Assembly (NCBI GenBank): GCA_964616075.1
Contig: CAZTRA010000001.1
Coordinates: 49,599-113,598 of the forward strand
From: an uncultured Candidatus Saccharibacteria bacterium
GTDB lineage: Bacteria; Patescibacteriota; Minisyncoccia; Phycocordibacterales; DSPV01
DNA length: 64,000 nucleotides
Direction: 5' to 3'
The notes under the pieces were generated by a model that worked only from the letters and a program-made list of their open reading frames with translations, was not told the origin of the DNA and made no database searches. Below are positions 8,531 through 58,066 of this stretch, one piece after another; position 1 is the first letter of the stretch, and every line of letters starts with the position of its first letter. Made by a program: the position numbers and the translations under genes.

Positions 8531-10002
8531 TAGACTTTTTTACTGGTAAAAAGACGTTCAAAAGAGAACCGCCTCGAGGAGATGTGCGGCTCTATAACAC
8601 CAAAACAGGACAAAAGGAACCAGTCTCTGTACTTACGCCACCTACCGTCCGCATGTACAACTGCGGACCGACTGTATATGCGCAGGCACACATTGGAAAC
8701 TTACGGGCCTATGTCTTCGCTGACATCCTAAAACGGACATTACTACAAGCTGGTTTTACTATTGATCAGGTCATAAACATTACCGATGTCGGTCATCTAA
8801 CGTCAGACAACGACGAGGGAGCTGACAAAATGGAAGAGGGTGCAAAAAAGGCTGGAAAATCAGCACGCGAAATTGCCCATACCTACACTGACCTCTTCAT
8901 GAAAGATCTTTCGGCACTCAATATTCTTACTGAGGACATTTCATTTCCAAAAGCAACAGACCATATTGGCGAACAAATCGCCCTCATACAAACTTTAGTT
9001 GAAAAAGGATATACATACAAAACATCAGACGGCATATACTTCGACTCTTCCCTTTTTAAAACATACGGATCACTAGGAGGTATTAATCTCACAGGCATCA
9101 AAGAAGGCGCCCGCGTGGAGAAAAACCCAGAAAAAAAACATCCGACTGATTTTGCGTTGTGGAAATTTTCTACCCCAGAAGAAAAACGTCAACAAGAATG
9201 GTTGTCACCATGGGGTGTTGGATTCCCCGGGTGGCACATCGAATGTTCAGCTATGGCAATGAAATATTTAGGCTCAACATTAGACATACATACCGGCGGT
9301 ATCGATCATATTCCAGTGCACCACAACAATGAGATTGCCCAATCAGAGGCAGCAACAGGCCGTACCTTTGCTCGTTTCTGGCTTCATAGTGAACACCTAA
9401 TGATTGAAGGAAGAAAAATCAGTAAATCGCTTGGAAATACTATTACTATCGACCAACTTATAGATCGAGGTATAAGTCCGCTCGCCTACCGCTACTTCCT
9501 TCTCACCGGACATTACCGCTCAAAAATGAACTTCACATGGGAGGCCCTTGAGGGAAGCGCCGCTGCACTATTTCGCTTACGTAAATACTTTGTCGAACAA
9601 CTTAGTAAGGCAAAAAAACACGCCGAAGTAGACAAAAAAGCCCTAACCACCTTCACGACCTACATGAATGATGACCTAGACACACCTAAAGCAGTAGCTT
9701 TCATGTGGGAGTATGTAAAAAATAACACAATTGACCCCGCAACAAAACGGGCAACACTCTCTACCATGGATGAATGGCTTGGCCTAGGTATCCTTGAGTC
9801 TGATGTCATACTCTCCACAATGCACAACAGCACTGTCCCTACCGAGCAAGACGAGGAAATAAAAACACTCCTGGAAAAACGGGAAACGGCACGCAAGAAC
9901 AAAGACTGGAAAGAGGCCGATAGAATCCGCACATTCATTAATGCAAAAGGCTTTGAGATTATTGATAGTCCGCACGGACAAACACTCGAACCCAAAAAAT
10001 AG
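8521..10002 (+). CDS. cysS: cysteinyl-tRNA synthetase
   Basis: HIGH motif region (YNCGPTVYAQAHIGN) and KMSKS (KISKSLGN). Confidence 0.95.
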   Translation: MALIDFFTGKKTFKREPPRGDVRLYNTKTGQKEPVSVLTPPTVRMYNCGPTVYAQAHIGNLRAYVFADILKRTLLQAGFTIDQVINITDVGHLTSDNDEGADKMEEGAKKAGKSAREIAHTYTDLFMKDLSALNILTEDISFPKATDHIGEQIALIQTLVEKGYTYKTSDGIYFDSSLFKTYGSLGGINLTGIKEGARVEKNPEKKHPTDFALWKFSTPEEKRQQEWLSPWGVGFPGWHIECSAMAMKYLGSTLDIHTGGIDHIPVHHNNEIAQSEAATGRTFARFWLHSEHLMIEGRKISKSLGNTITIDQLIDRGISPLAYRYFLLTGHYRSKMNFTWEALEGSAAALFRLRKYFVEQLSKAKKHAEVDKKALTTFTTYMNDDLDTPKAVAFMWEYVKNNTIDPATKRATLSTMDEWLGLGILESDVILSTMHNSTVPTEQDEEIKTLLEKRETARKNKDWKEADRIRTFINAKGFEIIDSPHGQTLEPKK

Positions 10003-10092
10003 ACTCTTCCACATGTTGGTCACACGTTTTGCACCAAACTCAACCTTCACGCAAGAGACAGGTACGCAGAGCATTGTTACAATACGCAGACG

Positions 10093-11496
10093 ATGAAGGA
10101 AAAAACGCGTCCCATGCTCCGTCTGCCACCACAGTCACTTGAGAGCGAACAAGCATTGCTCGGTTCAATCATGTTACGCCCTGATGCGGCGCTCGACATT
10201 ATGCCGAGCGTTCCACCAGACGCATTCTACGCTGAACGAAACCGACTGATTTATCAGACTATGATTGAACTAGCAGATCAACACTCGCCTATTGATTTAA
10301 TTTCTCTGGCGACAAAATTGTCAGAAAAAAAACTTCTTGAATCCGTCGGGGGGCGAGCCTACCTCGCTGACCTACTAGGTACAGTTCCTTCAGCAGCAAA
10401 CATTGAATACTACGCAGAGATTGTAGCCGGCAAATACCTGCTACGACGACTTATCGAGGCCTCAGAGCGCGTGGGACAACTAGGATACAGCGAGGATCGC
10501 AATGTTTCTGAACTCATAGACGAAGCGCAGCGAGTGATTTTTGACGTAGCTAACGCGTCGTCTCATGGCGTTAAATTTGTTGAATTAAGACACGCACTTG
10601 GAGAAGCGTGGAATCGAATCGACACCTTACACAAAAATAAACACGAGCTCCGTGGTGTTCCTACCGGCTTTAAGAAACTTGACGGACTACTTGCTGGTCT
10701 ACAAAAATCAGACCTTGTGATCCTCGCCGCACGCCCTTCTGTTGGTAAAACATCACTAGCACTTGATATTGCTCGCAACTCTGCCATTAAACACGGAACA
10801 CCAGTTGCTATTTTCTCTCTTGAAATGAGCTCGCAACAGCTTGTTGATCGTATGTTGGCGGCTCAATCGCAAGTAAACGCCTGGCGCATGCGCACTGGGT
10901 CACTCTCAACAGAAGATGAGTTTGGCCGTATCCGTGATGCACTTGATACCCTCTCCACCGCCCCTATATACATCAACGACGAACCGGGTATTACCGCTAT
11001 GAAGATGCGATCAGTTGCTCGACGACTGATGACAGAAAAAACACTCGGACTCATTGTTGTAGACTACTTACAACTCATGATGCCAATGCACACACGATCA
11101 TCTGATTCACTTGTACAACAAGTAACTGAAATTAGCCGCTCACTCAAACACCTTGCCCGTGAACTAAACGTACCAGTATTAGCACTCTCCCAGCTCTCCC
11201 GTGATGTTGAAAAACGTGGTGGTAAGCCGAGACTCTCTGACCTGCGTGACTCTGGTTCTATTGAACAAGATGCCGACGTTGTCATGTTTATTCATCGACC
11301 TGATCGATTTAACGAAAGTTCTGATCGCGCCAGTATCGCGGAAATACATGTCGAAAAACATCGCAACGGCCCGACAGGTAAAATTGACCTCTACTTTGAC
11401 GATCAACGAGCAACCTTCCTCGATCTTGAGAAAGATGATTTCGGAGCGCTTGCTAGTGGCATGACTAATACAACAGATAGCCCCAATGATTTCTAG
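10093..11496 (+). CDS. dnaB: replicative DNA helicase DnaB
   Basis: DnaB N-domain; Walker A ARPSVGKTSLALDIA; RecA-like C-domain motifs. Confidence 0.9.
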   Translation: MKEKTRPMLRLPPQSLESEQALLGSIMLRPDAALDIMPSVPPDAFYAERNRLIYQTMIELADQHSPIDLISLATKLSEKKLLESVGGRAYLADLLGTVPSAANIEYYAEIVAGKYLLRRLIEASERVGQLGYSEDRNVSELIDEAQRVIFDVANASSHGVKFVELRHALGEAWNRIDTLHKNKHELRGVPTGFKKLDGLLAGLQKSDLVILAARPSVGKTSLALDIARNSAIKHGTPVAIFSLEMSSQQLVDRMLAAQSQVNAWRMRTGSLSTEDEFGRIRDALDTLSTAPIYINDEPGITAMKMRSVARRLMTEKTLGLIVVDYLQLMMPMHTRSSDSLVQQVTEISRSLKHLARELNVPVLALSQLSRDVEKRGGKPRLSDLRDSGSIEQDADVVMFIHRPDRFNESSDRASIAEIHVEKHRNGPTGKIDLYFDDQRATFLDLEKDDFGALASGMTNTTDSPNDF

Positions 11497-11510
11497 TACA
11501 ATACAGCTAT

Positions 11511-12140
11511 ATGAAGCCAATAGATGAACTCACGGAATTATTTAAAACATTTCCTAGCGTCGGACCACGACAAGCGAAACGTTTTGTATATCATCTACTC
11601 ACCACCCAAAAAGATACATCTACCCGTATTGCTACCCTCATAAAGACAATACGCGAGAACACCGTCACATGTACAACATGCCAACGATTTTTCCCAAAAC
11701 AAAATCATGGATACACCACTTGTGAAGAATGCCGTGACACACAGAGAGACCCTTCTATACTTGCAATCGTGCCTCGAGACACAGATAGAGATGCTATTGA
11801 AAAAAGTAAAACATTCAAAGGGTACTACTTTGTACTTGGTGGTACAGTCCCTATACTGGGAGAACATCCTGAAAAAAGAATCCGTCTACCACTCTTACTA
11901 CGCACTATCACGCAACATGCTAAAAATGGTTTAAAAGAACTTATTATTGCCATGGACGCCAATCCTGAGGGGGATCATACGGCTGAATATCTCGTAAAAA
12001 CATTACAACCAATCACCGCAGAATACGCATTGATTACAACTGTACTAGGACGCGGATTCTCAACGGGTACCGAGCTTGAATATGCGGATCCGGAAACCAT
12101 ACAAAACGCACTCTTAAACCGATCAAAAATTACTTCATAA
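11511..12140 (+). CDS. recR: recombination protein RecR
   Basis: HhH at N-terminus (FPSVGPRQAKRFVYHLL); C4 zinc finger (CTTC..CEEC); Toprim-like C-domain. Confidence 0.85.
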   Translation: MKPIDELTELFKTFPSVGPRQAKRFVYHLLTTQKDTSTRIATLIKTIRENTVTCTTCQRFFPKQNHGYTTCEECRDTQRDPSILAIVPRDTDRDAIEKSKTFKGYYFVLGGTVPILGEHPEKRIRLPLLLRTITQHAKNGLKELIIAMDANPEGDHTAEYLVKTLQPITAEYALITTVLGRGFSTGTELEYADPETIQNALLNRSKITS

Positions 12141-12640: not shown

Positions 12641-13714
12641 CTATGCCTCAGTATCCGGACGCTCCAGTGTCACTGTTTCAAGTTCCGGGGCAGTCCCTGC
12701 AATACGCAACACATCTTTATCAAGCTGTTTAAAGGCTTTACCAGAAGCATTGTAGTGGTTGACCACAGTCGAAAGCGCATTTCCAAGCTTTCCATGGTAC
12801 TCTTCGTAGCCCTTTAAATGCTTTCCTAGCTCTTCTACACGCTTACGTATCTCTTTGGCTGTTTCTTCTATTTGGAGGGCTTTCAGACCCTGTAATACGG
12901 TCTGGAGATAGGCAAGAAAAGAGGTTGGTGACACGATAATCACCCGGTACTTACCAGCCGCCCGCTGCACCAGATTTTCCGTATCATCCGTAACCGCCCC
13001 GACCTTGTTGACGAGCAAATCGTAGTAAATAGCCTCGTGCGGAATAAACATAAACGCAAAGTCGGTTGTTCCCTGCTCTGGCTGAATATATTTACTTGTT
13101 TCAACAATACGACTCTTTAAGTCGTTGGTAAAAATCTTCTGAAGCCGATCTTTTTCAGTGGGATCTTTTGCCTCAACCAAACGATTGTAATTTTCCAATG
13201 AAAACTTTGAATCAATGGGAATGATTTTTTCTTTCACAAACACAGCGGCATCAACAATCGTGCCATCAGGAAACACATACTGCATGGCAAAACTTCCCGG
13301 CGGCAACGTGTTTTTAAGAAGGGTTTCCAAATAATACTCGCCGAGTACGCCACGCTGTTTTGGATTTTTAAGCAAATCACCAAGACTCTGCAGTTCAGAA
13401 GCAAACCCAACCATCTGTTTTCCTGTTTCCTCAACACGCGTCACCTTTTCGGTCATTGCCGTCACTTCACGCAAAAACTTATCCACGAGCTTCTGCGATT
13501 CTCCAAACTGCGAGCGCATCGCATCGTGCATGAACTTGTTTGTCTCACCGATTTTCTCATCAACTGTTCGGGAAAGGCTATTCATCTGATCCAAAAGCAA
13601 ACGGAGCGATGTATCATCTTGCGGTATGGGCTTTTGCCTACGTACCAATAACATAATCACAGCGACCAATAGTGCGGTAATAATCGCAAGAAAACCAATT
13701 AATCCTGTGTCCAT
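12641..13714 (-). CDS. rmuC: DNA recombination protein RmuC
   Basis: N-terminal TM then long coiled-coil and a C-terminal RmuC-like domain. Confidence 0.75.
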   Translation of the reverse strand: MDTGLIGFLAIITALLVAVIMLLVRRQKPIPQDDTSLRLLLDQMNSLSRTVDEKIGETNKFMHDAMRSQFGESQKLVDKFLREVTAMTEKVTRVEETGKQMVGFASELQSLGDLLKNPKQRGVLGEYYLETLLKNTLPPGSFAMQYVFPDGTIVDAAVFVKEKIIPIDSKFSLENYNRLVEAKDPTEKDRLQKIFTNDLKSRIVETSKYIQPEQGTTDFAFMFIPHEAIYYDLLVNKVGAVTDDTENLVQRAAGKYRVIIVSPTSFLAYLQTVLQGLKALQIEETAKEIRKRVEELGKHLKGYEEYHGKLGNALSTVVNHYNASGKAFKQLDKDVLRIAGTAPELETVTLERPDTEA

Positions 13715-13841
13715 AACATGTATTGTAGCATGGTGAAACCGAGCTCCTCGTCATAAGGAATCCTATGTTTGACTAAATAAAAAATAAGTGCTAATATATT
13801 TTTAGAAAACGTACTTCAAAACATCAACTGAAAGGATTTGC

Positions 13842-14426
13842 GTGAATTTCTATATCGCCGACATCCACCTCTTCGCGTGGATTGGAGCCGCACTCGCAAT
13901 ACTTGCATTCATCATCCTTGGGCACGGCATCTCCCAATCGAAAATAACTCAAAATATCCTCACCTGGGGACTCTGGGCTATTCTCGACATGGTGGCATTC
14001 GTGTCAGTGCTCGTACAAGGAGGAAACTCCTTACTAATTGCAATCTTCGTGTTGGGTAATGCCAGCATCACCGTGCTGATATACAGCACAGGTGGCGTGA
14101 TCACCTGGACGTGGTTTGAAAAAACCATTCTCCTTTTAATTGCGCTATGCATGATGATCTGGTACCTCTCGGGCCCTCAAGGAGCGACTATTGCGAGTAC
14201 CATAGCGGTATGCCTTGCCGGCGTACCACAACTCAAAGACGTTGCCAAAAACCCAAACACGGCACCGCTCTCACTATGGGTACTCAGTTTCCTCGCCAAT
14301 GGTATAACAACCGCCGGCGGCAAGAACTGGTCCATCGAGGAGCGCCTCTACCCTGCCGCAAGCACGGCGTACTGCCTGATCCTTGTTCTGTTGACCCTGC
14401 GACGCTACACCTATAAACAGGCATAG
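13842..14426 (+). CDS. hypothetical multi-pass membrane protein
   Basis: 5-6 predicted TM helices; no recognisable family. Confidence 0.4.
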   Translation: MNFYIADIHLFAWIGAALAILAFIILGHGISQSKITQNILTWGLWAILDMVAFVSVLVQGGNSLLIAIFVLGNASITVLIYSTGGVITWTWFEKTILLLIALCMMIWYLSGPQGATIASTIAVCLAGVPQLKDVAKNPNTAPLSLWVLSFLANGITTAGGKNWSIEERLYPAASTAYCLILVLLTLRRYTYKQA

Positions 14427-14523
14427 CGCACAACCACTCCGTACATGGTCGGAGTGGTTTTCTATTACTGGCTTTTCACAGTCTGTAGTCGTACACTATA
14501 CCTACGAGCTAATCTATATACTC

Positions 14524-14973
14524 ATGTCACTTGCACAAGATATTAAGCAATTAGTAAAAGAAGCGCTCCTCAAGAAAGATGAGGTGCGCCTGACCGTCCT
14601 GCGATCTATCCAAGCAGCTATTACCAATGAGATCATTGCCAAAAAAGTTACCGAGTTGACCGATGATGACGTGCTAACCCTCATCAGACGGTCGGTCAAG
14701 CAGCACAAAGACTCAATCGATCAATTTACCAAAGGTGGACGCACCGATCTCGTACACAGCGAGCAAGCGGAACTCACTATTCTTGAAGAATTTTTGCCGA
14801 CTATGATGGACAAAACGGAAATAAAAAAGATTGCGGAAGCAAAAATGAAAGAACTCGGTGTGACTAATAAAACAAAAGCCGGTATGCTCACCGGTGCACT
14901 CATGAAAGAATTGAAAGGACAAGCAGACGGCTCAGATGTGAAAGCGGTAGTTGATCAACTCCTCACTACCTAA
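14524..14973 (+). CDS. GatB/YqeY domain-containing protein
   Basis: MSLAQDIKQLVKEALLKKDEVRLTVLRSIQAAITNEII is characteristic of the YqeY family. Confidence 0.8.
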   Translation: MSLAQDIKQLVKEALLKKDEVRLTVLRSIQAAITNEIIAKKVTELTDDDVLTLIRRSVKQHKDSIDQFTKGGRTDLVHSEQAELTILEEFLPTMMDKTEIKKIAEAKMKELGVTNKTKAGMLTGALMKELKGQADGSDVKAVVDQLLTT

Positions 14974-46034: not shown

Positions 46035-46190
46035 AACCAGTTTCAATTTGAATTGTTCAGAAGAGCTACTATTTTAAGGCATGAAACTACTTCCACCGAA
46101 CTCACATTCAGCCGTCAGGACAAACCCTGCGGACTTACCAAAAACTTCTTTACACTCAATCGCTTTAGGTGCTTTCTAGCCACCCAGAAA
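46035..46190 (-). pseudogene. decayed fragment paralogous to the PhnB/VOC-family gene at 47544..48050
   Basis: about 150 nt of clear nucleotide similarity to 47770-47940; frame disrupted by stops. Confidence 0.45.
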
Positions 46191-47543: not shown

Positions 47544-48050
47544 CTATTGGCCGGCTTTTTTGATTTTTTCAAGATCAATTTTCTTCATTGGCATAAATGC
47601 CGTAGTGACTGCGTCTGCTTTTTGAGGATCTCGCATCATTTCATCCAGAATTCTTGGAACCACTTGCCACGTAACGCCAAATTTATCTTTGCACCATCCG
47701 CACTGTTCAGCTTCAGGCACCGCTGAAAGTTTCTCCCAGAAGAAATCAATTTCTTCTTGTGTTTCGCATTCAATGATAAACGAGGTAGACCCATTAAGTT
47801 TGAACTGCTCAAACGGGCCGCCGTTTAAAGCCATAAAGCTACTTCCATCGAGCTCACATTCAGCTGTCAGAACAGACCCCTCGGGCCTACCGGACACTTC
47901 TTTAAATTCAGGAGCTTTAGGCGCTCTCGTAATATCGCCAAGTGTCGCTTCATGATGACCAGGAGCTGATCTAAACGTATCTACATAATATCGTACTGCC
48001 TCTTCTCCATCATTATTAATAAACCAGATGCACGTAATTAATTTGCTCAT
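47544..48050 (-). CDS. PhnB-like / VOC (glyoxalase-fold) family protein
   Basis: MSKLITCIWFINNDGEEAV ... FGVTWQVVP pattern typical of the PhnB/3-demethylubiquinone methyltransferase-like DUF. Confidence 0.65.
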   Translation of the reverse strand: MSKLITCIWFINNDGEEAVRYYVDTFRSAPGHHEATLGDITRAPKAPEFKEVSGRPEGSVLTAECELDGSSFMALNGGPFEQFKLNGSTSFIIECETQEEIDFFWEKLSAVPEAEQCGWCKDKFGVTWQVVPRILDEMMRDPQKADAVTTAFMPMKKIDLEKIKKAGQ

Positions 48051-48188: not shown

Positions 48189-48836
48189 CTAATTTGTAAG
48201 TTTATTCCATATAAAATCAATATGAGGATTCTCTTTCCATAATTCTAAAATTTGATTTCTCAATTCTTGATGTTGAGGGTATCCAGTATCTTCAATACCT
48301 TCTGGTAATAAGTGATTACACTCTATATTAAGTAAAACAGTTAAAGCTTCTTTAATATCATTATATTTTTCTGGGCCAATTCTTTCTTGTTCATCTGCTC
48401 CAAACTTATACCAAGTATAGAAGTGCCACAATTCGTGCATGACTGTTTGCAATGCAGAGTTATTAGACAAGCAAACAAAAAATAAATTCTCTTTTAAGGA
48501 ATAAGGACATCTGTTATTGATTGTTAGATATACTGTAATATCTTCTAGTAGAGATACTCCAAAAACTTTCTCTGCAATATTTTGAAATTCATCCGAAATA
48601 TCTTCAAAATCTTTTTGATACTCTTTAATTCTTTTATTTATATCAATCTTGTTGTCTGCGATATATGTATCTATAAATTTAGAAGTAGACCTTTCATCAG
48701 GATTTTTTCCTGCAAAGTTAATTAGTTGTTCATATGCTTTTGTTGGATTGGGAGAGTTATTAGAGCTTTTACCTTTATTTAACAAACACCAAATATCCTC
48801 ATCTTTTTTGTAAGTAAAATTTAATTGCATATACAA
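48189..48836 (-). CDS. hypothetical HExxH-motif protein on a markedly AT-rich segment
   Basis: VMHELWHFY; GC visibly lower than neighbours. Confidence 0.45.
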   Translation of the reverse strand: MYMQLNFTYKKDEDIWCLLNKGKSSNNSPNPTKAYEQLINFAGKNPDERSTSKFIDTYIADNKIDINKRIKEYQKDFEDISDEFQNIAEKVFGVSLLEDITVYLTINNRCPYSLKENLFFVCLSNNSALQTVMHELWHFYTWYKFGADEQERIGPEKYNDIKEALTVLLNIECNHLLPEGIEDTGYPQHQELRNQILELWKENPHIDFIWNKLTN

Positions 48837-49565: not shown

Positions 49566-49627
49566 ATCAAGGTTCCAATCCGATATAATAATAACATACT
49601 ATAAGGTATGTTGTCAACTGCTAGCTC

Positions 49628-49695
49628 CGGTGGATTACTAAGGATGTTTATCACAAAAAGCATCACAAGAGTACCAAGACCAAATACAAACTACT
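49628..49695 (+). repeat. left copy of about 70-bp imperfect direct repeat bounding the island (lies in a recombinase-like 3' fragment ...WITKDVYHKKH...)
   Basis: cggtggattactaaggatgtttatCacaaaaagcatcaCaagagtaccaagac... matches 57660-57756. Confidence 0.7.
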
Positions 49696-49898: not shown

Positions 49899-50086
49899 TA
49901 GTATAATTTGGTGTATTGTTTTGGCACACCTGGGTTCCTCCTGAAACCACTAGCCGTGTAAAAGAACATGTTAACATACTAACACGCTATATATATTTAG
50001 TCAAATTTGCTCCACATCGTGAACGAAGTTATAACCTATTTTAAGACCACGGATCAATACCATTACATCCCGAGTTTTAACTAAAA

Positions 50087-52903
50087 CTACTCAGAGATAC
50101 GGTATTTCAACTGGCGCTGCTTAAATGCCTCAGACCCTCCCTCTAAGACTTTTATTGCATGGGTGTATATTTCAGGATTTTCAATAGACCCAGCATTGTA
50201 AGAAATCTCCCCATCTTTTCTATTAGCAATGATTATTTGCTCAGAATCACTATTAATAACCACATTACCGTTATTTGAGGCAAGAATAACCTGTCTGTAT
50301 TGCTTTGCTTGTCTAATAGCCTTCACAAGTTCATCCATAATAAATTCGTTATCAAGGTGATCGTCGTGAGAATCAATAATAATAGGTTTATCTCCCTGGG
50401 CAAGATAGATTTTCATAAGTACTGTAGCCTTTTGTCCGAGTGAGAGTTTCTGTAATTGAGTACCCTTATATTTAACAGTGGGCGCAACGGAATAATAATC
50501 TCCGTAAACAAGATCATAAAATGACGTAGTGGAAATACCTTGTGAATTTTTTATCTTGTCTTTGTAGTCTGAAACAACTGAGTTGTTTTGTTTGATAATT
50601 TCACCTATTTTTTTATCATCTCCATTTACATATTCCTGATTAATTGAAAACAGACTTGCAAAAATTGACTCCTCGTCTTTTGAATGAGAAACTTTTACTT
50701 TTCTCTGATCGAGAATATCTTCCGCACCTTGTTCAAACTTTGATTGGTTGTAATTAATTTTTGCGCTAAAACTTAAATCACTAAGCACGTCATCTTTGTT
50801 AGTTGAAAAGACTGAGATAATTTCCTCATACTTTTTCTTAAGTAGAAATGTGTCATTCAATAATTTTGAGTAAAGGTCCTCTCTGTTTTTCAGTTCTTTT
50901 TTAAGAGTTTCCTGATCCTTGTTTAAGTCGGCTTCTTTCTTTTCAAGTTTTACTAAGTCCTGAGCAAGTTCTTTTTGTTTATCCAATAATTTAGCGTGAT
51001 TTTTTACACCAACCTCTAAGGACTCAATATCTTTTTGAGCCTTTTCTAGTTCTTTAACTATTTTTGTGAGTTCTGTTTGTATTTCTGTGCTAATACTTCC
51101 AAGGTCATCCTTACTACTATAAGCAAGTGCGGATAACTGTTTTTTATTACCATGTTTCTTTAATAAAGCATTGATTGAATCTACTGTGGTATTGAATACC
51201 ACTAGATCATTCGATACAAAATCCGCAGCATCCCTTAAATAACCCTGAATACTTAACAACTCATCCTTCTTTTCTTTGAGCCTAGTAACTATCCCTTGTT
51301 TACTTTGTGCTACTAGTTTGTTTTCAAGAGTTTGTGCTTTTTCTGATTCCACAACTCTATTAGAAATATCCTTAATTTCTGCCTCAAGTTTATTTTTATC
51401 TGCGAGAACTGATTTTGTATTGGTTGCACTCGTAGATTCTTCAAGTTTTGCTATCAGTGCATTTTTTTGTTTAATACTCTTTTTACTAAGAGTTATCTCG
51501 CTTTGTAGTTGCTCAAACTCAAAACTTTTCTCTGTATCTTTTATTACAGGACTATCAAAAATAAGGCTATTAATGTAGTCATCCAAATCTGAGTCATCGC
51601 TAATATATTCCTCAAGTTCACCTTGGGCTATGTAGACAACTTCACTATGTTCAAAAAAATTTCCATCAGTTAGTTTTTTTGAAAAAGTTGTTCCGTCTTT
51701 GAACGTGAGTTCAACCTCGATGTCTGGGGTCTGATCAGATGTTATTCTCCTTACAAAAGAATTTGGGTCTTTAATGTTGGACCTATCTTTGTAACAATTT
51801 GCTAGTAAATCAACAAAAGCAGTTTTTCCGCTCCCTTTTCCTCCAGTAACAGATACTAGTGCGGGATTTAGTTCAATTTCAGTTGCATTTATTTTTAACT
51901 CACTCCCAATCACAGAATCACTAATTTTGATTTTCTGAATAGTATAATTACTTTTTACTGGAGTAGGGTCTTTTTCTTGAATTTTAACTCGGTCAGCAGG
52001 CTCATATGATAATTGTTTTAGTCCATCAAAAGTTGGGTCCGATTTAATCCAACAAAAGCGCATATCGCAATTAAGTGGTGTCTTTGTGCAATCATGACTT
52101 GTCTTGCCTCGATTTGCACAAGGTTTACAGATACTTTCAAGATCATGTGAATCAGATCCATGAATACACGCCTTAAGGCTTCCATACTTCCTTTTGATTT
52201 CGTCGACTGAGTCAGTGCCATTACCTAAAAAATAATCTCTATCTGATGGATTTCCCGATAGAATGAAATGAGACAACCTGTAAATCTCTTCGCGAGTAGC
52301 AGCCATACTGGAATGCTGGATTCCCGAATTACCATCATTACTGTTATTTGAGACAGCCAAAACTACGTTTTCTGCTAGACGTTTATCTTGTAGTATTTCT
52401 CTTAACTGATTGTGGCTGGTTTTGAATTGTTCAACACCTGCCTTATATGCAGCAACATCGTCTAAGGTTTGATCATTTTTGTAAGCCTTACCCAGGCTTA
52501 TCAAATCAGACTTAATACATTTGTATTTTTGTGCTTTGTAATTGTATTCCAAACTTGAGAATAATTTTGATTCCAACTCATTAACAATTTCAGGGTTTAT
52601 TATTAAATGAATGTTGATAGGTTTTTCAGTTGATGTAACTGGTAATATCCTAAGTTCGACATTTGGAACAATTAAATCAAAATTAGTGAGTTTTCCTTCG
52701 GTAATCACTTTTTGATATCCCTCAATTGAAAAGTAGTCAGTTATTCCAATTACGGACACACCTGTAATTGTTTTTAATTTTGCAAAAAAGTTGGTCCATT
52801 TTTCTTCCGTGGTCGCACCCTCAAACAAAGTATTATTTAATACTGATGCTGGACTGTGTACGTGTAGGTCCCATTTTCTCCAAATTGATCCTTGTGTCGA
52901 CAT
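50087..52903 (-). CDS. PHP-domain phosphoesterase fused to SbcC/Rad50-like coiled-coil ABC ATPase (938 aa); fourth gene of the defence operon
   Basis: N-terminal WRKWDLHVHSPAS PHP motif I; Walker A VTGGKGSGKTAFVDLL; about 300-aa K/E/L-rich coiled-coil; ABC signature-like LSLGQKATVL; Walker B / D-loop PIIIDSHDDHLD. Confidence 0.75.
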   Translation of the reverse strand: MSTQGSIWRKWDLHVHSPASVLNNTLFEGATTEEKWTNFFAKLKTITGVSVIGITDYFSIEGYQKVITEGKLTNFDLIVPNVELRILPVTSTEKPINIHLIINPEIVNELESKLFSSLEYNYKAQKYKCIKSDLISLGKAYKNDQTLDDVAAYKAGVEQFKTSHNQLREILQDKRLAENVVLAVSNNSNDGNSGIQHSSMAATREEIYRLSHFILSGNPSDRDYFLGNGTDSVDEIKRKYGSLKACIHGSDSHDLESICKPCANRGKTSHDCTKTPLNCDMRFCWIKSDPTFDGLKQLSYEPADRVKIQEKDPTPVKSNYTIQKIKISDSVIGSELKINATEIELNPALVSVTGGKGSGKTAFVDLLANCYKDRSNIKDPNSFVRRITSDQTPDIEVELTFKDGTTFSKKLTDGNFFEHSEVVYIAQGELEEYISDDSDLDDYINSLIFDSPVIKDTEKSFEFEQLQSEITLSKKSIKQKNALIAKLEESTSATNTKSVLADKNKLEAEIKDISNRVVESEKAQTLENKLVAQSKQGIVTRLKEKKDELLSIQGYLRDAADFVSNDLVVFNTTVDSINALLKKHGNKKQLSALAYSSKDDLGSISTEIQTELTKIVKELEKAQKDIESLEVGVKNHAKLLDKQKELAQDLVKLEKKEADLNKDQETLKKELKNREDLYSKLLNDTFLLKKKYEEIISVFSTNKDDVLSDLSFSAKINYNQSKFEQGAEDILDQRKVKVSHSKDEESIFASLFSINQEYVNGDDKKIGEIIKQNNSVVSDYKDKIKNSQGISTTSFYDLVYGDYYSVAPTVKYKGTQLQKLSLGQKATVLMKIYLAQGDKPIIIDSHDDHLDNEFIMDELVKAIRQAKQYRQVILASNNGNVVINSDSEQIIIANRKDGEISYNAGSIENPEIYTHAIKVLEGGSEAFKQRQLKYRISE

Positions 52904-52906
52904 AAA

Positions 52907-55588
52907 TTAATTCGATAGTTTACTTGCAAATGTTTGATAACTATCGACCTCTTGGTAGTTAACATGAATCACTTCAAAGTGTTTCTTTGCTGATTCTATT
53001 TTTGCTTTTTCGGTTGGGCGTAAGTTGTTTACGTCGCCCTTTGTTTCAACAACAAAGTAAACCTTTTCACTTTCATTGCCTTTAAGATCACGCTTTGCAG
53101 TAACAATAGCCCAGTCAGGATTGTAGCCACCAACAGGTGTCTCAACTTTGTACCAGTTAGGCATTTTAATAAACAATTTAATACGCTCGTCTTGCTCGAG
53201 GTTCAATGCAAAGTTCTTTTCAACGTCAGAGTCGTGAACAATAGCATCATAAATGGACCGAGTAACTGCCAAAGTAGAGTCCTTATAACTTTCAAGTGCT
53301 TTGAATTCTTCTGCCTTGTAAGCATCAGAAATAACCTCATAACTTACTTGCTCAACGTAAGTCTTTACGAGTTCTTGTTTTATGATTTTACTAGCCTCAA
53401 CTACAAAGCGATCAGGGTTGTTAAAGAAAGCCTCCCAGTTATTTGCCTCAAGAACAATTTCAGCGATTGTAGAGCGAGTGAGTCGGGTATGTGCCTTGAT
53501 TTCAGAAATACAATCCATCGTTCGAGTTTGTGTTGCCCCCGTGTCGCCTGATTCAGCCCCCAGGACGAGAGATTTGATACCTTTCGCAGAGATATCGATA
53601 CCTGCACGCTCAACACGAATGTGGGGCTTTTGTAGCCGAATTTCAGATATAGCCTTTGCGGAGTTGGTTATAAGCGACTCGGTGTTTACTTTTACGAGGT
53701 AACGAGTCTTCTTTGAAATGCGGCCCCACAACTCTTTGAAGTTCTCGTCTTTTTGGAATCCAGGCTTGAGTGCGATCTTACTTCGCTGTTTTGCATTGTG
53801 AGGTAATTGAGGTGTTTTGTAGATACCATCCTCTTGGAATTCTGCTTGTAGGCTTGCAACGTAGTCGGCATAACTTATGTTTGCAACCACTGAAAGCAAA
53901 TTGATTCGTCTATCAAAAATACGATCACCTTCTTGATTAACACAAAGACGCATACCACGACCAATCTCTTGGCGCTTTTTCATTGAGGAAGTTGTCTCAT
54001 TCAAAGTACAGATATTAAACACGTTCGGATTGTCCCAACCTTCACGGAGTGCAGAGTGAGAGAAAATAAATTCAACAGGTTCAGAGAAAGACAAAAGACG
54101 CTCCTTATCTTTCATAATAAGTTCATAAGCCTCGTCATTCTTTTCAATAGCAGAGTCTTGCTCAACAAAACTACCGTCTTTCTTTTTTGCAAAGTATCCA
54201 GTGTGAAGTGAGTCGATAGAATTTTGCCCCAGGGCAAATTCATTTTTAACTCTTGATAACTCCTCGGTAAATATCTTGCGTATCATTCCATCCGCACCAG
54301 CATAATTTGCAACCTTATCGATAAAGAAAAGGCTCAAGACTTTAATATCAAAATCCTTGTGCTTTTGTTTTTTCTCAATGTGAAGTCTGATAGTCTCAGA
54401 TATTTGTCTACGCCAAATATCCTCCTTGTTTTGATTAATAGCAGTTCCTCGAGAAAGAATAAAACCATTGGTAAAGTGAACCTTGCCCTCAGCGCCAAAC
54501 TCAGGTGCGTCCGCATCGATATTTGAAACCACATAGCCGTCATAGGCTTTGTTACCCGTAAGTTCAGATAGGTTGTCGTTCTTTTTTACATTGGTTGCTT
54601 TTACCTTTCTATTTCCATCGCTATCCATAAAAGCGAGTTCAACTTTTGCTTTAATACCACTGGCAGTCTTTGCTGGTTTTGCCTCAACAAAAACCATGTG
54701 AGGGACCGAAGTACCACTATCGTCATCAGTTACTGAAAAGACTTCTATTTTTTTAACAAGCCCAAGTTGGTAAGCATCGTAAGGTGTGAGTTGGTGTACA
54801 AGGTTGTATGGATTCTTGTGAGTAGCAGAATAGCGGAGGCGGAATAGTGCATTGAAATTCTCAAGCGCTTTTCTTGTAGCATCACCTTCCATATTTTGTG
54901 GCTCGTCGAGGATAAGAATAGGGTTTGTCTTTTTAATAAACTCAATTGGTTGTTCACCCTGCATTTGATCACGAGCACCATAAAGAACGTTAGCGTCTTT
55001 GTTAAAAGCACCAACGGTCATAACCATGATATTTATCACGCTACTGTCGGCAAAGTGTCGAACCTGGGTGATATTTTTTGATTTGTATTCGTAAAATCTG
55101 AAAGGAGTGTTTGCATACAATTCTTTGAAGTGGTCCTCGGTGATTTTCAGGGTCTTAATAACACCCTCGCGAATAGCAACAGACGGGACTAAAATAATAA
55201 ACTTTTTCCAGCCGTACTTTTGATTGAGTTCAAAAATGGTACGCAAGTAAACATACGTTTTACCTGTACCCGTTTCCATTTCAACTGAGATGTCTTTCCA
55301 TCCTACATACTCGCCATTAAAAGTATAATCAGGGTCGTCATAAGTAACTCCTGGTTCGTTGAATTTAATACTGCTTTTTATTTCCTCTAAGTTGTTTTGA
55401 GATTTAATTCTTTTGATATTTTCTTTTACTTCCTCAGGGGACAAAGTAAGTACATTTGGATAGATACCAAACAATCCCAAACCAGCCACAGTCTGTGCTG
55501 TAGTTTTTTCTTGTCCCTCAAAACAATCAACCACTGAGTTGACTGCTTGAAGTTGGTATTCTTGATTTGGATCAAACTTAAATTTCAT
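52907..55588 (-). CDS. res: Type III restriction enzyme Res-like subunit (SF2 helicase plus C-terminal PD..ExK endonuclease)
   Basis: helicase motif I TGTGKTYVY, motif II LILDEPQNM; C-terminal YNPDWAIV ... FVVETKG. Confidence 0.85.
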   Translation of the reverse strand: MKFKFDPNQEYQLQAVNSVVDCFEGQEKTTAQTVAGLGLFGIYPNVLTLSPEEVKENIKRIKSQNNLEEIKSSIKFNEPGVTYDDPDYTFNGEYVGWKDISVEMETGTGKTYVYLRTIFELNQKYGWKKFIILVPSVAIREGVIKTLKITEDHFKELYANTPFRFYEYKSKNITQVRHFADSSVINIMVMTVGAFNKDANVLYGARDQMQGEQPIEFIKKTNPILILDEPQNMEGDATRKALENFNALFRLRYSATHKNPYNLVHQLTPYDAYQLGLVKKIEVFSVTDDDSGTSVPHMVFVEAKPAKTASGIKAKVELAFMDSDGNRKVKATNVKKNDNLSELTGNKAYDGYVVSNIDADAPEFGAEGKVHFTNGFILSRGTAINQNKEDIWRRQISETIRLHIEKKQKHKDFDIKVLSLFFIDKVANYAGADGMIRKIFTEELSRVKNEFALGQNSIDSLHTGYFAKKKDGSFVEQDSAIEKNDEAYELIMKDKERLLSFSEPVEFIFSHSALREGWDNPNVFNICTLNETTSSMKKRQEIGRGMRLCVNQEGDRIFDRRINLLSVVANISYADYVASLQAEFQEDGIYKTPQLPHNAKQRSKIALKPGFQKDENFKELWGRISKKTRYLVKVNTESLITNSAKAISEIRLQKPHIRVERAGIDISAKGIKSLVLGAESGDTGATQTRTMDCISEIKAHTRLTRSTIAEIVLEANNWEAFFNNPDRFVVEASKIIKQELVKTYVEQVSYEVISDAYKAEEFKALESYKDSTLAVTRSIYDAIVHDSDVEKNFALNLEQDERIKLFIKMPNWYKVETPVGGYNPDWAIVTAKRDLKGNESEKVYFVVETKGDVNNLRPTEKAKIESAKKHFEVIHVNYQEVDSYQTFASKLSN

Positions 55589-55593
55589 AATTG

Positions 55594-57378
55594 TTAAATT
55601 GTTTTCAAATCAAGGTTAAGGGACAGATTGGCGGCAGTAGTGTCGTCGAGACTACTCTCGAGACAAATAAATAATTTACCTTTGTGAGACTTATCAGTAA
55701 GTTCTTTTACAGTTTCAGACGCAAGTTTATTTTCAAGACAAACAAGTAATTGCTGTTCGCCGTCGGATACTTTGTGAACTTTATTTTTGCCGATAGTAAT
55801 TGTTTCGACTTTACTATTTAGCGACAAGCCTTCTTTAACGATATTTTCATAAACAACATTCATATCGTCCTCTTTATCAAAAAGTTGGCTTTGCTTTGCT
55901 TTATGTAAGTAAGCAACAAATGCTTGCTGGTTTTCTTCGGATGATTTCTCGGGATTAAATACAAAAGTATTTTCAGGATAGTTTGATTCAGAGAGTGTAA
56001 ACACTTTGAATCCCGCATCAATAGGCTGAGGATTCTCGCCATAACCTTTTATTACACGTCGAATACGCTCTTTTGCAATATCAGCAATAGTTTTGTATCC
56101 AGCATTAAATCCGTCGGATCCTTCTTCGAGTTTTTCAGGAAGTTGCACACAAATAAATTTTCTATTGCCACCATCTTCTTGATTTTGTTTGAAAACAGCA
56201 TGAGCAGTTGTACCAGAGCCCGCAAAGAAATCTAAGATAATATCTTCTTGATTTGTTGATATTTTTAGCATTTCTTGAATATAAGGAATTGGTTTCGGGG
56301 TATCGAAAATTATTCCACCGAAAATAGATTTAATCTCATCGGATGCATTTGCGGCGTTTGAGGTATTATCCCAAATTGTCTCAGGAATTTTTCCCTTATT
56401 TTCGTCGATAAACAACTTACGGTAGAGATTATCTCCTCTAACAATAAGTTTATTTTCATTGTCTAATTTTTGTAAATTTTCTTTACTGAACAACCAAAGT
56501 CTTTCCTTAAAGTATTGTCCTTCTTTATTTGTAAAATCATATTTAACACCACCTTGAGTTCCTCTAGCCCAAACGGCAAGCATTCTGTAATCGCCTCTAG
56601 GATCGTTGTCGGGGTTCTTGTAAGCCTCCTTTGTCCCTTCATCAAGATCAAGATAATTTGTATTGAATTGTTGCAGGTCTTTAGCAAAGACCAATAAGTA
56701 CTCGTGTGATTTACTAAACCATCTCGCAGAATTATCACGCCCACGTTTTCTTTTCCAAATAACATTTGCAACAAAATTTTCTTCACCAAAAATCTCATCA
56801 AGTACTAGTCTTAAATTATGAACCTCATTATCGTCGATAGATACAAAAATAGCCCCATCTTCACGAAGTAAATTCCAAGCCAATTTAAGACGAGGATACA
56901 TCATAGAAAGCCAGTCGCTATGGTAACGCCCATTGGTTTCTTTGTTTGTGGTAGTACTTTCACCAGCCTCAGTTTTTTGACCTGTTTGCTTTAAGTAGTT
57001 ATCAAGAGGGGCGCTAAAATTATCGTTGTATACAAAATCATGACCCGTGTTATAAGGCGGATCAATGTAAATCATTTTCACTTTCTCAAAGTAAGCCTTT
57101 TGTAAAAGTTTCAAAACTTCTAAGTTATCGCCCTCAATAAAAAGGTTTTCGGATTCATCCCATTTAATGCTTTGCTTAGGTTCAGGATTGAGAGTTAGTT
57201 TGCTAGGGACCAACACACTTTTAATAGCGTTACTTTTACCAGCCCAAGTAAAAGAAAACTTATCAGACAAATTGACTGCCTGTGAACTTAAATCCTCTAT
57301 GTATTTTTGTAAGTTCAAAGACTTCTCAAAGAGTGAGTCATCCGATGTTAAATTAATTTTTGTGGGTTTTTTATTCAT
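55594..57378 (-). CDS. mod: Type III Mod-like N6-adenine DNA methyltransferase (beta class: motif IV before motif I)
   Basis: IYIDPPYNTG (motif IV DPPY) at about residue 95-105; FFAGSGTTAHAV (motif I) at about residue 380. Confidence 0.9.
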   Translation of the reverse strand: MNKKPTKINLTSDDSLFEKSLNLQKYIEDLSSQAVNLSDKFSFTWAGKSNAIKSVLVPSKLTLNPEPKQSIKWDESENLFIEGDNLEVLKLLQKAYFEKVKMIYIDPPYNTGHDFVYNDNFSAPLDNYLKQTGQKTEAGESTTTNKETNGRYHSDWLSMMYPRLKLAWNLLREDGAIFVSIDDNEVHNLRLVLDEIFGEENFVANVIWKRKRGRDNSARWFSKSHEYLLVFAKDLQQFNTNYLDLDEGTKEAYKNPDNDPRGDYRMLAVWARGTQGGVKYDFTNKEGQYFKERLWLFSKENLQKLDNENKLIVRGDNLYRKLFIDENKGKIPETIWDNTSNAANASDEIKSIFGGIIFDTPKPIPYIQEMLKISTNQEDIILDFFAGSGTTAHAVFKQNQEDGGNRKFICVQLPEKLEEGSDGFNAGYKTIADIAKERIRRVIKGYGENPQPIDAGFKVFTLSESNYPENTFVFNPEKSSEENQQAFVAYLHKAKQSQLFDKEDDMNVVYENIVKEGLSLNSKVETITIGKNKVHKVSDGEQQLLVCLENKLASETVKELTDKSHKGKLFICLESSLDDTTAANLSLNLDLKTI

Positions 57379-57380
57379 AA

Positions 57381-57578
57381 TTATTTCTTCTTTTTCTTAG
57401 GAGGCTTTACATTAGAGGATTGCTCAAGGAACTGTCGCAGGTCGTCCTCGCTTATTCGCCAATATCCGACCTTTGAGGCTTTTAATTTGCCGTCGTGAAT
57501 GTAGCGAAAGATAGACCTTTCACTGACACGTAACGCTTCGGCTACTTCTTTAACGCTGAGAAATTTTGTGTTAGTCAT
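57381..57578 (-). CDS. excisionase-family helix-turn-helix DNA-binding protein (65 aa, Lys-rich tail); first gene of the operon, possible controller
   Basis: LSVKEVAEALRVSERSIFRYIHDGKLKASKVG.WRI matches the excisionase/MerR-like HTH pattern. Confidence 0.8.
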   Translation of the reverse strand: MTNTKFLSVKEVAEALRVSERSIFRYIHDGKLKASKVGYWRISEDDLRQFLEQSSNVKPPKKKKK

Positions 57579-57598
57579 AATTATTTTCTCCTTTTTAC

Positions 57599-57627
57599 AT
57601 TTTACTCCTTCAAAAACCCTGTGTCAA
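57599..57627 (-). promoter_or_regulatory. sigma70-like promoter TTGACA-17-TAAAAT with RBS AAGGAG for the HTH-mod-res-ATPase operon
   Basis: minus-strand ttgaca cagggtttttgaaggag taaaat gtaaaaaggagaaaataatt ATG. Confidence 0.55.
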
Positions 57628-57636
57628 AGTGTGTCA
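57620..57636. promoter_or_regulatory. direct repeat TGTGTCA-n3-TGTGTCA overlapping the -35, a candidate operator
   Basis: read directly. Confidence 0.3.
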
Positions 57637-57659
57637 TGTTGTTTCTTGATTAAATTATA

Positions 57660-57756
57660 CGGTGGATTACTAAGGATGTTTATGACAAAAAGCATCAATT
57701 ACTAAGGATGTTTATGACAAAAAGCATCAAGAGTATCAGGACAAAATACAGGTACT
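57660..57756 (+). repeat. right copy of the island-bounding direct repeat, containing a perfect 32-bp tandem duplication (57667-57698 / 57699-57730)
   Basis: ttactaaggatgtttatgacaaaaagcatcaa x2; matches 49628-49695. Confidence 0.8.
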
Positions 57757-57990: not shown

Positions 57991-58066
57991 TGGCTCCGCG
58001 GCCTGGGCTCGAACCAGGGACCCTCCCGTTAACAGCGGGACGCTCTACCGACTGAGCTACCGCGGA
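57991..58066 (-). tRNA. tRNA-Asn (anticodon GUU), CCA encoded
   Basis: manual cloverleaf: acceptor TCCGCGG/CCGCGGA, anticodon stem TCCCG/CGGGA with loop CTGTTAA, T-arm CCTGG TTCGAGC CCAGG, 3' GCCA. Confidence 0.85.

Follow-up and report, generated by a model that had tools for sequence, protein, structure and literature searches.

The present work concerns a four-gene operon in a window of 64,000 nucleotides (nt), i.e., the whole stretch of DNA that was analysed, which covers positions 49,599 to 113,598 of contig CAZTRA010000001.1 (assembly GCA_964616075.1) from an uncultured Candidatus Saccharibacteria bacterium. The four genes lie on the minus strand, and encode, in the order of transcription, a helix-turn-helix (HTH) protein of the HTH_17 or excisionase family with 65 amino acids (aa; 57578-57381), a Type III Mod protein of 594 aa (57378-55594), a Type III Res protein of 893 aa (55588-52907), and a TrlF-family protein of 938 aa (52903-50087), in which a predicted PHP domain is joined to an ABC ATPase. 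The genes are separated by 2 nt (HTH-Mod), 5 nt (Mod-Res) and 3 nt (Res-TrlF), and the open reading frames (ORFs) are exactly those of the original prediction, which had been made from the letters of this DNA and had described four tightly packed genes of a possible new type of defence system. The linkage of a TrlF gene to restriction-modification (R-M) genes was found to recur in other genomes, and its possible meaning is considered below.

The operon and the cassette

In the translation of the Mod gene the motif DPPY, followed by FAGSG, is legible, and the protein is matched by N6_N4_Mtase of Pfam (9e-38) and MTase_III of PADLOC (568 bits, 6.9e-171), in agreement with the previous description of a beta-class N6-adenine methyltransferase with DPPY and FxGxG motifs. 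The order HTH-Mod-Res-TrlF recurs in two other metagenome contigs, L126 and L129, whose flanks differ, and when the Mod proteins were compared, both ends were 85-98% identical and the central region of about 200 aa was almost unrelated. Conserved ends around a diverged centre are the usual signature of swapped target-recognition domains (TRDs), and the central region of Mod is predicted to be a swapped recognition region of this kind. The Res protein is matched by the ResIII helicase family, by RE_endonuc (PF19778, 1.9e-33) and by REase_III of PADLOC (779 bits, 1.9e-234), and its C-terminal PD..ExK motif is intact and legible as NPDW...VVETKG, as anticipated for a superfamily 2 (SF2) helicase that carries a nuclease. 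Res scored 285.6 bits with the NCBIfam equivalog PRK15483, without reaching the cutoff of 564, which points to a diverged subfamily and not to another R-M type.

Judged by their sequences, Mod and Res are a diverged but ordinary Type III R-M pair. Enzymes of this type recognise a short asymmetric site, in which a single strand is methylated by Mod (hemimethylation), and Res cuts DNA with unmethylated sites; cleavage depends on ATP and requires two unmethylated sites in inverse orientation. With the EcoP15I-like systems the operon shares the order mod then res, a beta-class Mod with a swappable recognition region, and a Res with an SF2 helicase and a C-terminal PD..ExK nuclease. In contrast to canonical Type III systems, it adds a leading HTH gene and a third large gene that is tightly coupled to the other two.

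Upstream of the HTH gene there is a sigma-70-type promoter, TTGACA-17-TAAAAT (57627-57599, minus strand), which agrees with the consensus at 11 of 12 positions, better than any other site of the region. The first ATG is preceded, at a distance of 8 nt, by an AGGAG ribosome-binding site; the single near-consensus promoter and the ribosome-binding site were thus found as predicted. Since 27 promoter-like sites were detected in the region and 24 are expected from shuffled sequence, a match to the consensus is weak evidence when taken alone. Both promoter hexamers (-35 and -10), as well as a tandem TGACACAC-TT-TGACAC motif overlapping the -35 element, are unchanged in the diverged cassettes of L126 and L129, and given that the coding DNA is only 74-82% identical, this invariance argues for a function of the three elements; the tandem motif may be an operator. 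The HTH protein matches HTH_17 of Pfam (4e-15) and TIGR01764 'excise' (43.8 bits, cutoff 28.8), consistent with the excisionase family to which it had been ascribed. A function as an excisionase was rejected, because no integrase is present and because, in several loci (L008/L060 among them), this is the first gene of the operon. It is likely that this protein is a transcriptional regulator of the operon promoter.

The comparison with L126 and L129 also delimited the cassette. The DNA homology begins at the inner edge of a direct repeat on the left side (57663) and stops about 70 nt past the stop codon of the TrlF gene (50017), so that the homologous segment (50017-57663, minus strand; 74-82% identity) contains the complete operon. 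At the protein level the identities to L126 are 82% for HTH, 58% for Mod, 85% for Res and 83% for TrlF, the low value of Mod being due to the swapped recognition region; the identities to L129 are much the same, except for TrlF (64% over residues 49-938). In L129 the PHP part at the N-terminus of TrlF has diverged or contains a frameshift, with residues 1-49 and 49-938 aligning separately (9024-11923, 12969-14716); the TrlF gene called in this contig encodes 871 aa, and HEPN, HEPN_Swt1 and DUF5343 genes are found downstream.

The left direct repeat (57660-57729, minus strand) is formed by two tandem copies (57660-57697 and 57698-57729) with a core of 32-38 nt, and the right one (49628-49665, minus strand) is identical to the left copy at 37 of 38 positions. 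These three copies compare with zero expected by chance, and none was found elsewhere in the window; the similarity between right and left repeats continues imperfectly to about 75 nt, and within 10-35 nt after each repeat comes a near-consensus promoter. The one that lies directly beyond the right repeat, TTGACA-18-TATTAT (49617-49588, 11/12 positions, extended TG), drives an ORF of 139 aa (49439-49020) that has no Pfam domain and is followed by a strong terminator (48999-48973). The flanking repeat may be an att-like target duplication, with no integrase present.

The GC content of the cassette is 36.7%, versus 43.6% for the rest of the window, and to this extent the earlier notion of an AT-richer, tRNA-linked island was borne out; the tRNA link amounts to proximity only, given that tRNA-Asn (57991-58066) lies 262 nt past the left repeat, that the repeat is not tRNA-derived and that the cassette contains no integrase. 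An Rfam search returned only tRNAs. In L129, no repeats similar to those of the window were detected on either side of the cassette, and when an empty site, i.e., a related contig without the cassette, was sought with the VTT-domain protein of the flank, the same contigs came back and no others. The spacing of the genes and the comparison with L126 and L129 indicate that the four genes are one co-transcribed and discrete unit that moves horizontally as a whole.

The TrlF-family protein and its relatives

No Pfam domain was matched by the 938-aa protein. The NCBIfam profile NF045780, 'TrlF family AAA-like ATPase', matches it with 501.3 bits (cutoff 350) and from end to end, with residues 5-935 aligned to positions 2-944 of the 944 in the profile; by this match the protein is a member of an already named family. 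Hundreds of members are annotated in RefSeq, and the family, counted as clusters at 50% identity, comprises 7,037 clusters at E<=1e-3, 4,808 at 1e-10 and 1,405 at 1e-30. Several of the close relatives with an organism name come from metagenome-assembled genomes of Patescibacteria, or the candidate phyla radiation (Pacebacteria, Microgenomates, Woesebacteria), which makes a bacterium of this radiation the probable host of the window.

Residue conservation was established from an alignment of 20 homologues. The N-terminal part contains seven invariant residues (H14, H16, E83, H99, H248, D251 and H253), followed by an invariant Cys/His cluster (C262, H270, C272 and C279). The motifs of the ATPase are also invariant, i.e., the Walker A GGKGSGKT (354-361), Q427, the ABC signature LSLGQ (820-824) and the Walker B D844; the residue after D844 is Ser and not Glu. 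An AlphaFold model of the full protein, with a predicted local distance difference test score (pLDDT) of 75.5, shows an antiparallel coiled coil of approximately 240 aa (458-701), which has no cysteine, and none is present after residue 370. Residues ~320-938 of the model match the heads of JetC, MukB, SMC, RecN, Rad50, LmuB and AriA (Foldseek E 5e-9 to 1e-4). A model of residues 1-330, for which database homologues were used (pLDDT 73, predicted template modelling score 0.76), resembles the PHP domains found in RNase AM and in Pol III alpha (Foldseek E 9e-6 to 1e-3). Weak matches to Pfam PHP_C and PHP were obtained in 13 and 6, respectively, of 23 family members, and sequence and profile searches of the Protein Data Bank (PDB) with the whole protein and with its N-terminal domain gave no match. 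In these models, TrlF is an N-terminal PHP phosphoesterase fused to an SMC/Rad50-like ABC ATPase. The original prediction had proposed a PHP domain with an SbcC/Rad50/OLD-like ATPase; the Foldseek matches uphold the PHP domain and the Rad50/SMC head, and the OLD-like part does not stand, as a TOPRIM domain is absent.

The name TrlF derives from the temperature restriction locus of Photorhabdus, trlR-trlF-trlG, where trlF is annotated as a histidinol phosphatase, follows a putative regulator of 79 aa and was assigned no role (10.1101/2020.06.02.129163). Both loci contain a full-length TrlF that scores above the cutoff, and a gene for a small putative regulator upstream; unlike the Photorhabdus locus, the window lacks TrlG (AlbA_2 and HATPase_c_4 domains) and has the Type III pair between the regulator and TrlF. 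No TrlG partner was found downstream of the window TrlF, where the ORFs have no Pfam domains. By analogy with trlR and trlF, the HTH gene of the window, which at first sight leads an R-M operon, may instead go with TrlF.

Among the characterised systems the closest is Ppl, a validated anti-phage system in which a single gene provides both the ATPase and the PHP domain (PMC11482910). According to a 2026 review, Ppl is a 3'-5' exonuclease of single-stranded DNA that is held inactive by nucleoside triphosphates (NTPs), and it is triggered by nucleotide depletion together with the 3'-OH ends produced by phage homing endonucleases (PMC12904381). The window TrlF shares with Ppl the two-part PHP and NTPase architecture and a weak but detectable similarity to its hidden Markov models (NCBIfam NF042955, 93.8 bits with a cutoff of 1000; PADLOC Ppl, 75 bits, C-terminus only). 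Its score is far under the cutoff, so that it represents another family, and its gene is operonic with R-M genes whereas Ppl stands alone; TrlF is, by these profile scores, a distant relative of Ppl. The suggestion of a new composite defence type has to be narrowed, since the fourth protein falls in a named family that is related to Ppl.

Other systems that had been considered do not account for the operon. No Hma model of PADLOC (HmaA, HmaB, HmaC) appears among the matches listed for the four proteins, those of Mod being the best 25 of 42, and the possible equivalence with Hma was dropped on these grounds; a BREX or DISARM subtype was rejected, because in PADLOC and NCBIfam there were no model matches or the defining parts were missing. 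For MADS, only the HTH protein resembles MAD1 (NCBIfam 25.7 bits, cutoff 80), with no other mad matches. The analogy with OLD or Gabija nucleases fails, since the nuclease domain is PHP and neither TOPRIM nor GajA was matched. SbcCD, or Mre11-Rad50, was also discarded, as there is no CxxC zinc hook and no SbcD/Mre11 gene in the operon. With SbcCD/Mre11-Rad50, LmuB of Lamassu and JetC of Wadjet, TrlF has in common an SMC/Rad50-like head, a long antiparallel coiled coil and a nuclease; in contrast with them, its nuclease would reside in the same chain and have the PHP fold instead of the Mre11 calcineurin-like or the Cap4/TOPRIM fold, and the operon encodes no CxxC hook, kleisin or partner subunits.

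TrlF genes in restriction-modification loci

To place the window in context, TrlF loci were collected (52 from genomes and 72 from metagenomes, plus contigs of database homologues and annotated plasmids), and the ORFs next to TrlF were mapped and identified by Pfam and phmmer. The proximity of TrlF to mod and res is not peculiar to the window: TrlF homologues are co-operonic with R-M genes in at least 16 distinct loci from many phyla, and over a set of about 75 related loci they are repeatedly the last or an internal gene of such operons. This answers the refuting condition attached to the original prediction, namely that homologues of the 938-aa protein are never adjacent to mod/res elsewhere. 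Other Type III operons are those of L008/L060/L061, of L040, which has an additional SNF2 helicase, and of L138, headed by a Fic gene. A looser arrangement is found in L132, a Lactococcus lactis plasmid, where TrlF precedes mod-res on one strand and two small genes intervene. Type I operons have TrlF either as the last gene, after hsdR and hsdMS (L002, L055), or in an internal position, in the order hsdR, hsdM, TrlF and hsdS (L019, 3150-11033; probably also L007, 6842-14255). A Type IIS operon consists of HTH-Dam, Dam, AlwI and TrlF (L022), and in a Type ISP operon a 1636-aa enzyme is followed by TrlF (L037; L035 holds a fragment). In L065, TrlF is the last or an internal gene of an operon with a PLD-SNF2 helicase and an Eco57I-like methylase. 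Other methylase modules are present in L062 and L004/L028/L057, with a fragment in L006; in L004, HTH-TrlF is followed by the methylase and a further gene. Only a helicase was found upstream of TrlF in L016 (superfamily 1) and L117 (PIF1).

When all operon neighbours were compared with one another, no more than four families recurred: ResIII-type helicase-nucleases (11), gamma-class methylases (8), beta-class methylases (7) and HTH_17 proteins (6); no conserved partner of TrlF outside R-M, such as TrlG, was detected in this comparison. With the count restricted to ORFs of 200 aa or more, R-M-like proteins made up 23 of the 84 operon neighbours, and 6 of the 330 ORFs elsewhere in these loci (odds ratio 20, p = 1e-12), a contrast that is somewhat overstated and partly circular, because the R-M seeds were taken from the operon set. 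As judged from these comparisons, the linkage of TrlF to R-M genes is non-random. Two loci have neighbours of a different kind, i.e., a MotA/ExbB-CHAT fusion, Zorya-like, upstream of TrlF in L081 (1002-4432), and a GmrSD_N protein upstream of TrlF in L080 (84-1493).

The reading that we favour, to which slightly less than even confidence is given, is that the operon is a self-contained horizontal cassette with three layers under one regulated promoter: control by the HTH protein, Type III restriction, and a TrlF protein that would degrade the DNA ends made by Res. A link through the product of restriction is favoured because the Type I, IIS, ISP and III enzymes have in common only broken unmethylated DNA, and because Ppl is reportedly activated by 3'-OH ends made by endonucleases (PMC12904381). 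The original prediction had supposed that the fourth protein could process DNA ends after Res cleavage; this idea fits with the reported activation of Ppl (PMC12904381).

The position of TrlF between hsdM and hsdS in L019 and L007 is the one that prrC occupies in EcoprrI-type loci, and this raises the possibility of a guard, as in PrrC with EcoprrI or in PARIS, where the R-M enzyme, or normal restriction, would hold TrlF inactive until a phage anti-restriction protein disables the enzyme, and TrlF would then cause abortive degradation of DNA. The ABC-ATPase effector PrrC is always linked to an R-M locus and silenced by it (PMC3458546), TrlF genes inside hsd operons resemble prrC in this respect, and AriA of PARIS is among the structural matches of TrlF. 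More generally, PrrC/RloC and TgvAB of Vibrio cholerae share with TrlF an ABC-ATPase effector gene that lies inside an R-M locus or in one operon with it; unlike PrrC/RloC, the effector domain of TrlF would be a PHP phosphoesterase instead of a HEPN anticodon nuclease, the zinc hook is absent, and the R-M partners are of many types. The diversity of the partners is also what makes a guard improbable: they cover five or more R-M types with unrelated mechanisms and structures, among them the single-chain Type ISP and also a Type IIS enzyme, and a specific silencing by protein-protein contacts would have to re-evolve for each of them; furthermore, TrlF is common without an R-M partner.

Most of the remaining TrlF loci are indeed solitary, and often lie near recombinases, Abi, HEPN or GIY-YIG nuclease genes, or plasmid transfer genes. 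Its occurrence without partners makes it most likely that TrlF can act autonomously, and the predominance of solitary genes suggests an autonomous module and not an obligate third subunit. From here it could be proposed that TrlF is a Ppl-like system that shares promoter and cassette with the Type III pair without interacting with it, each covering phages that the other misses. This is in line with the solitary occurrence of most homologues in defence or mobile contexts, with the fact that Ppl acts as a single gene (PMC11482910), and with the precedent of TgvAB, in which unrelated defence genes lie inside a Type I system (PMC11411939). Against such independence, the arrangement described next has arisen repeatedly and independently, with junctions of 0-12 nt, and TrlF also lies between hsdM and hsdS, which is more specific than the ordinary clustering of defence islands; moreover, R-M genes are the only recurrent partners. 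On balance we consider it unlikely, although a serious contender.

In several loci the R-M genes appear as an insert between a leader gene and TrlF. Related HTH genes of 63 aa are located 2 nt upstream of TrlF in L004, L009, L028 and L057. The HTH-TrlF pair of L009 (2-nt gap) has a counterpart in L008, where the order is HTH, a 220-aa ORF, Mod, Res and TrlF, and the HTH and TrlF proteins of the two loci are 79% and 85% identical; likewise, Fic-TrlF in L137 corresponds to Fic-Mod-Res-TrlF in L138, with identities of 64% for Fic and 72% for TrlF. In this second pair, the HTH leader is replaced by a Fic-domain protein with a winged-helix region (L137, 6924-10817; L138, 1900-10826), and a diversity-generating retroelement (RVT_1 and bAvd) is found in the vicinity of the L137 genes. 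Between the Type III Res proteins of five loci (the window, L008, L040, L132 and L138) the identity is 22-28%, or the alignment is confined to local segments, and in a rough neighbour-joining tree the R-M-linked TrlFs are scattered among the solitary ones, with different R-M types in sister positions. From both observations it follows that the linkage between TrlF and R-M arose many times independently.

The nesting of defence effectors in R-M loci is well known as a general theme. The embedding of TrlF in many R-M types, and the leader-[R-M]-TrlF sandwich, appear to be undescribed in the literature searched, in which only the Photorhabdus preprint was found for TrlF and no description for a PHP domain linked to R-M, the coverage being incomplete and thus no proof of novelty. 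A rather doubtful, more general proposal would be that leader-[R-M module]-TrlF constitutes a composite class of restriction systems, in which at least five R-M types would have been captured repeatedly between a regulator gene and a Ppl-like PHP-SMC nuclease, and in which this nuclease would be coupled to restriction through the ends made by the R-M enzyme, as its activating signal or its substrate; if this were true, one restriction cut would lead to the complete destruction of the invading genome.

The apparent acquisition of R-M modules by loci that already held TrlF, together with the Rad50/RecN/SMC-like fold of the protein, would also suit a role in the protection of the host, in which TrlF, in the manner of SbcCD, would clean the breaks made by the R-M enzyme in the host chromosome and lower the cost of carrying or acquiring R-M genes. 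This is very improbable, given that the family is found on plasmids, integrative elements and in defence islands and not with repair genes, and that Ppl, its closest characterised relative, is an anti-phage effector.

In the three-layered cassette that we favour, the HTH_17 protein would control the promoter, as the conserved tandem TGACAC motif over the -35 element suggests, and Mod and Res would act as a standard Type III enzyme, in which Res cuts unmethylated DNA. The ABC heads and the coiled coil of TrlF would bind DNA or its ends, and the PHP domain would hydrolyse phosphodiesters. If Ppl is taken as a guide, the substrate or the trigger would be the breaks and the 3'-OH ends that Res produces. 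TrlF would then degrade the restricted DNA and block its repair, recombination or replication. The benefit of co-transcription with R-M genes would lie in synergy and shared regulation, and not in the formation of an obligate complex.

Several points weigh against this proposal, besides the partial circularity of the enrichment. The biochemistry of TrlF and the order of events are inferred throughout, and the assignment of the PHP domain combines weak Pfam matches with a model of medium confidence (pLDDT 73). The Ser that follows the Walker B aspartate may indicate that ATP turnover is slow or purely regulatory; as a speculation, it hints at regulatory nucleotide binding as reported for Ppl. 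When Photorhabdus was selected for growth at high temperature, all the mutations were found in trlG and never in trlF (10.1101/2020.06.02.129163). Finally, with most homologues solitary or beside unrelated genes, the linkage to R-M is optional.

Should the coupling be functional, a role would be found for the large and widespread TrlF family, and the cassette would be a concrete case of restriction reinforced by a second nuclease that reads its product, which matters for how phages escape through DNA repair or through recombination and for how layered defences are designed; if it is not, the locus is one more defence island, with known modules under a shared promoter. The natural pairs with and without the R-M insert (L009/L008 and L137/L138) are ready test constructs.

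Other features of the window

A few features of the window outside the cassette can be mentioned. A stretch of 30.7% GC (48189-48836) contains an ORF of 215 aa without Pfam match that carries an HExxH-like motif, HELWH, and may be another acquired gene. A direct repeat of 135 nt with 75% identity is located at 46042-46176 and 47794-47928; as one copy is inside a gene of the 3-dmu-9_3-mt family (47544-48050), the two copies are probably part of paralogous genes. At the other end of the window, an ORF of 295 aa (1983-2870) lies in a stretch of 58.7% GC, in a contig of about 43% GC, and this region is probably foreign DNA.

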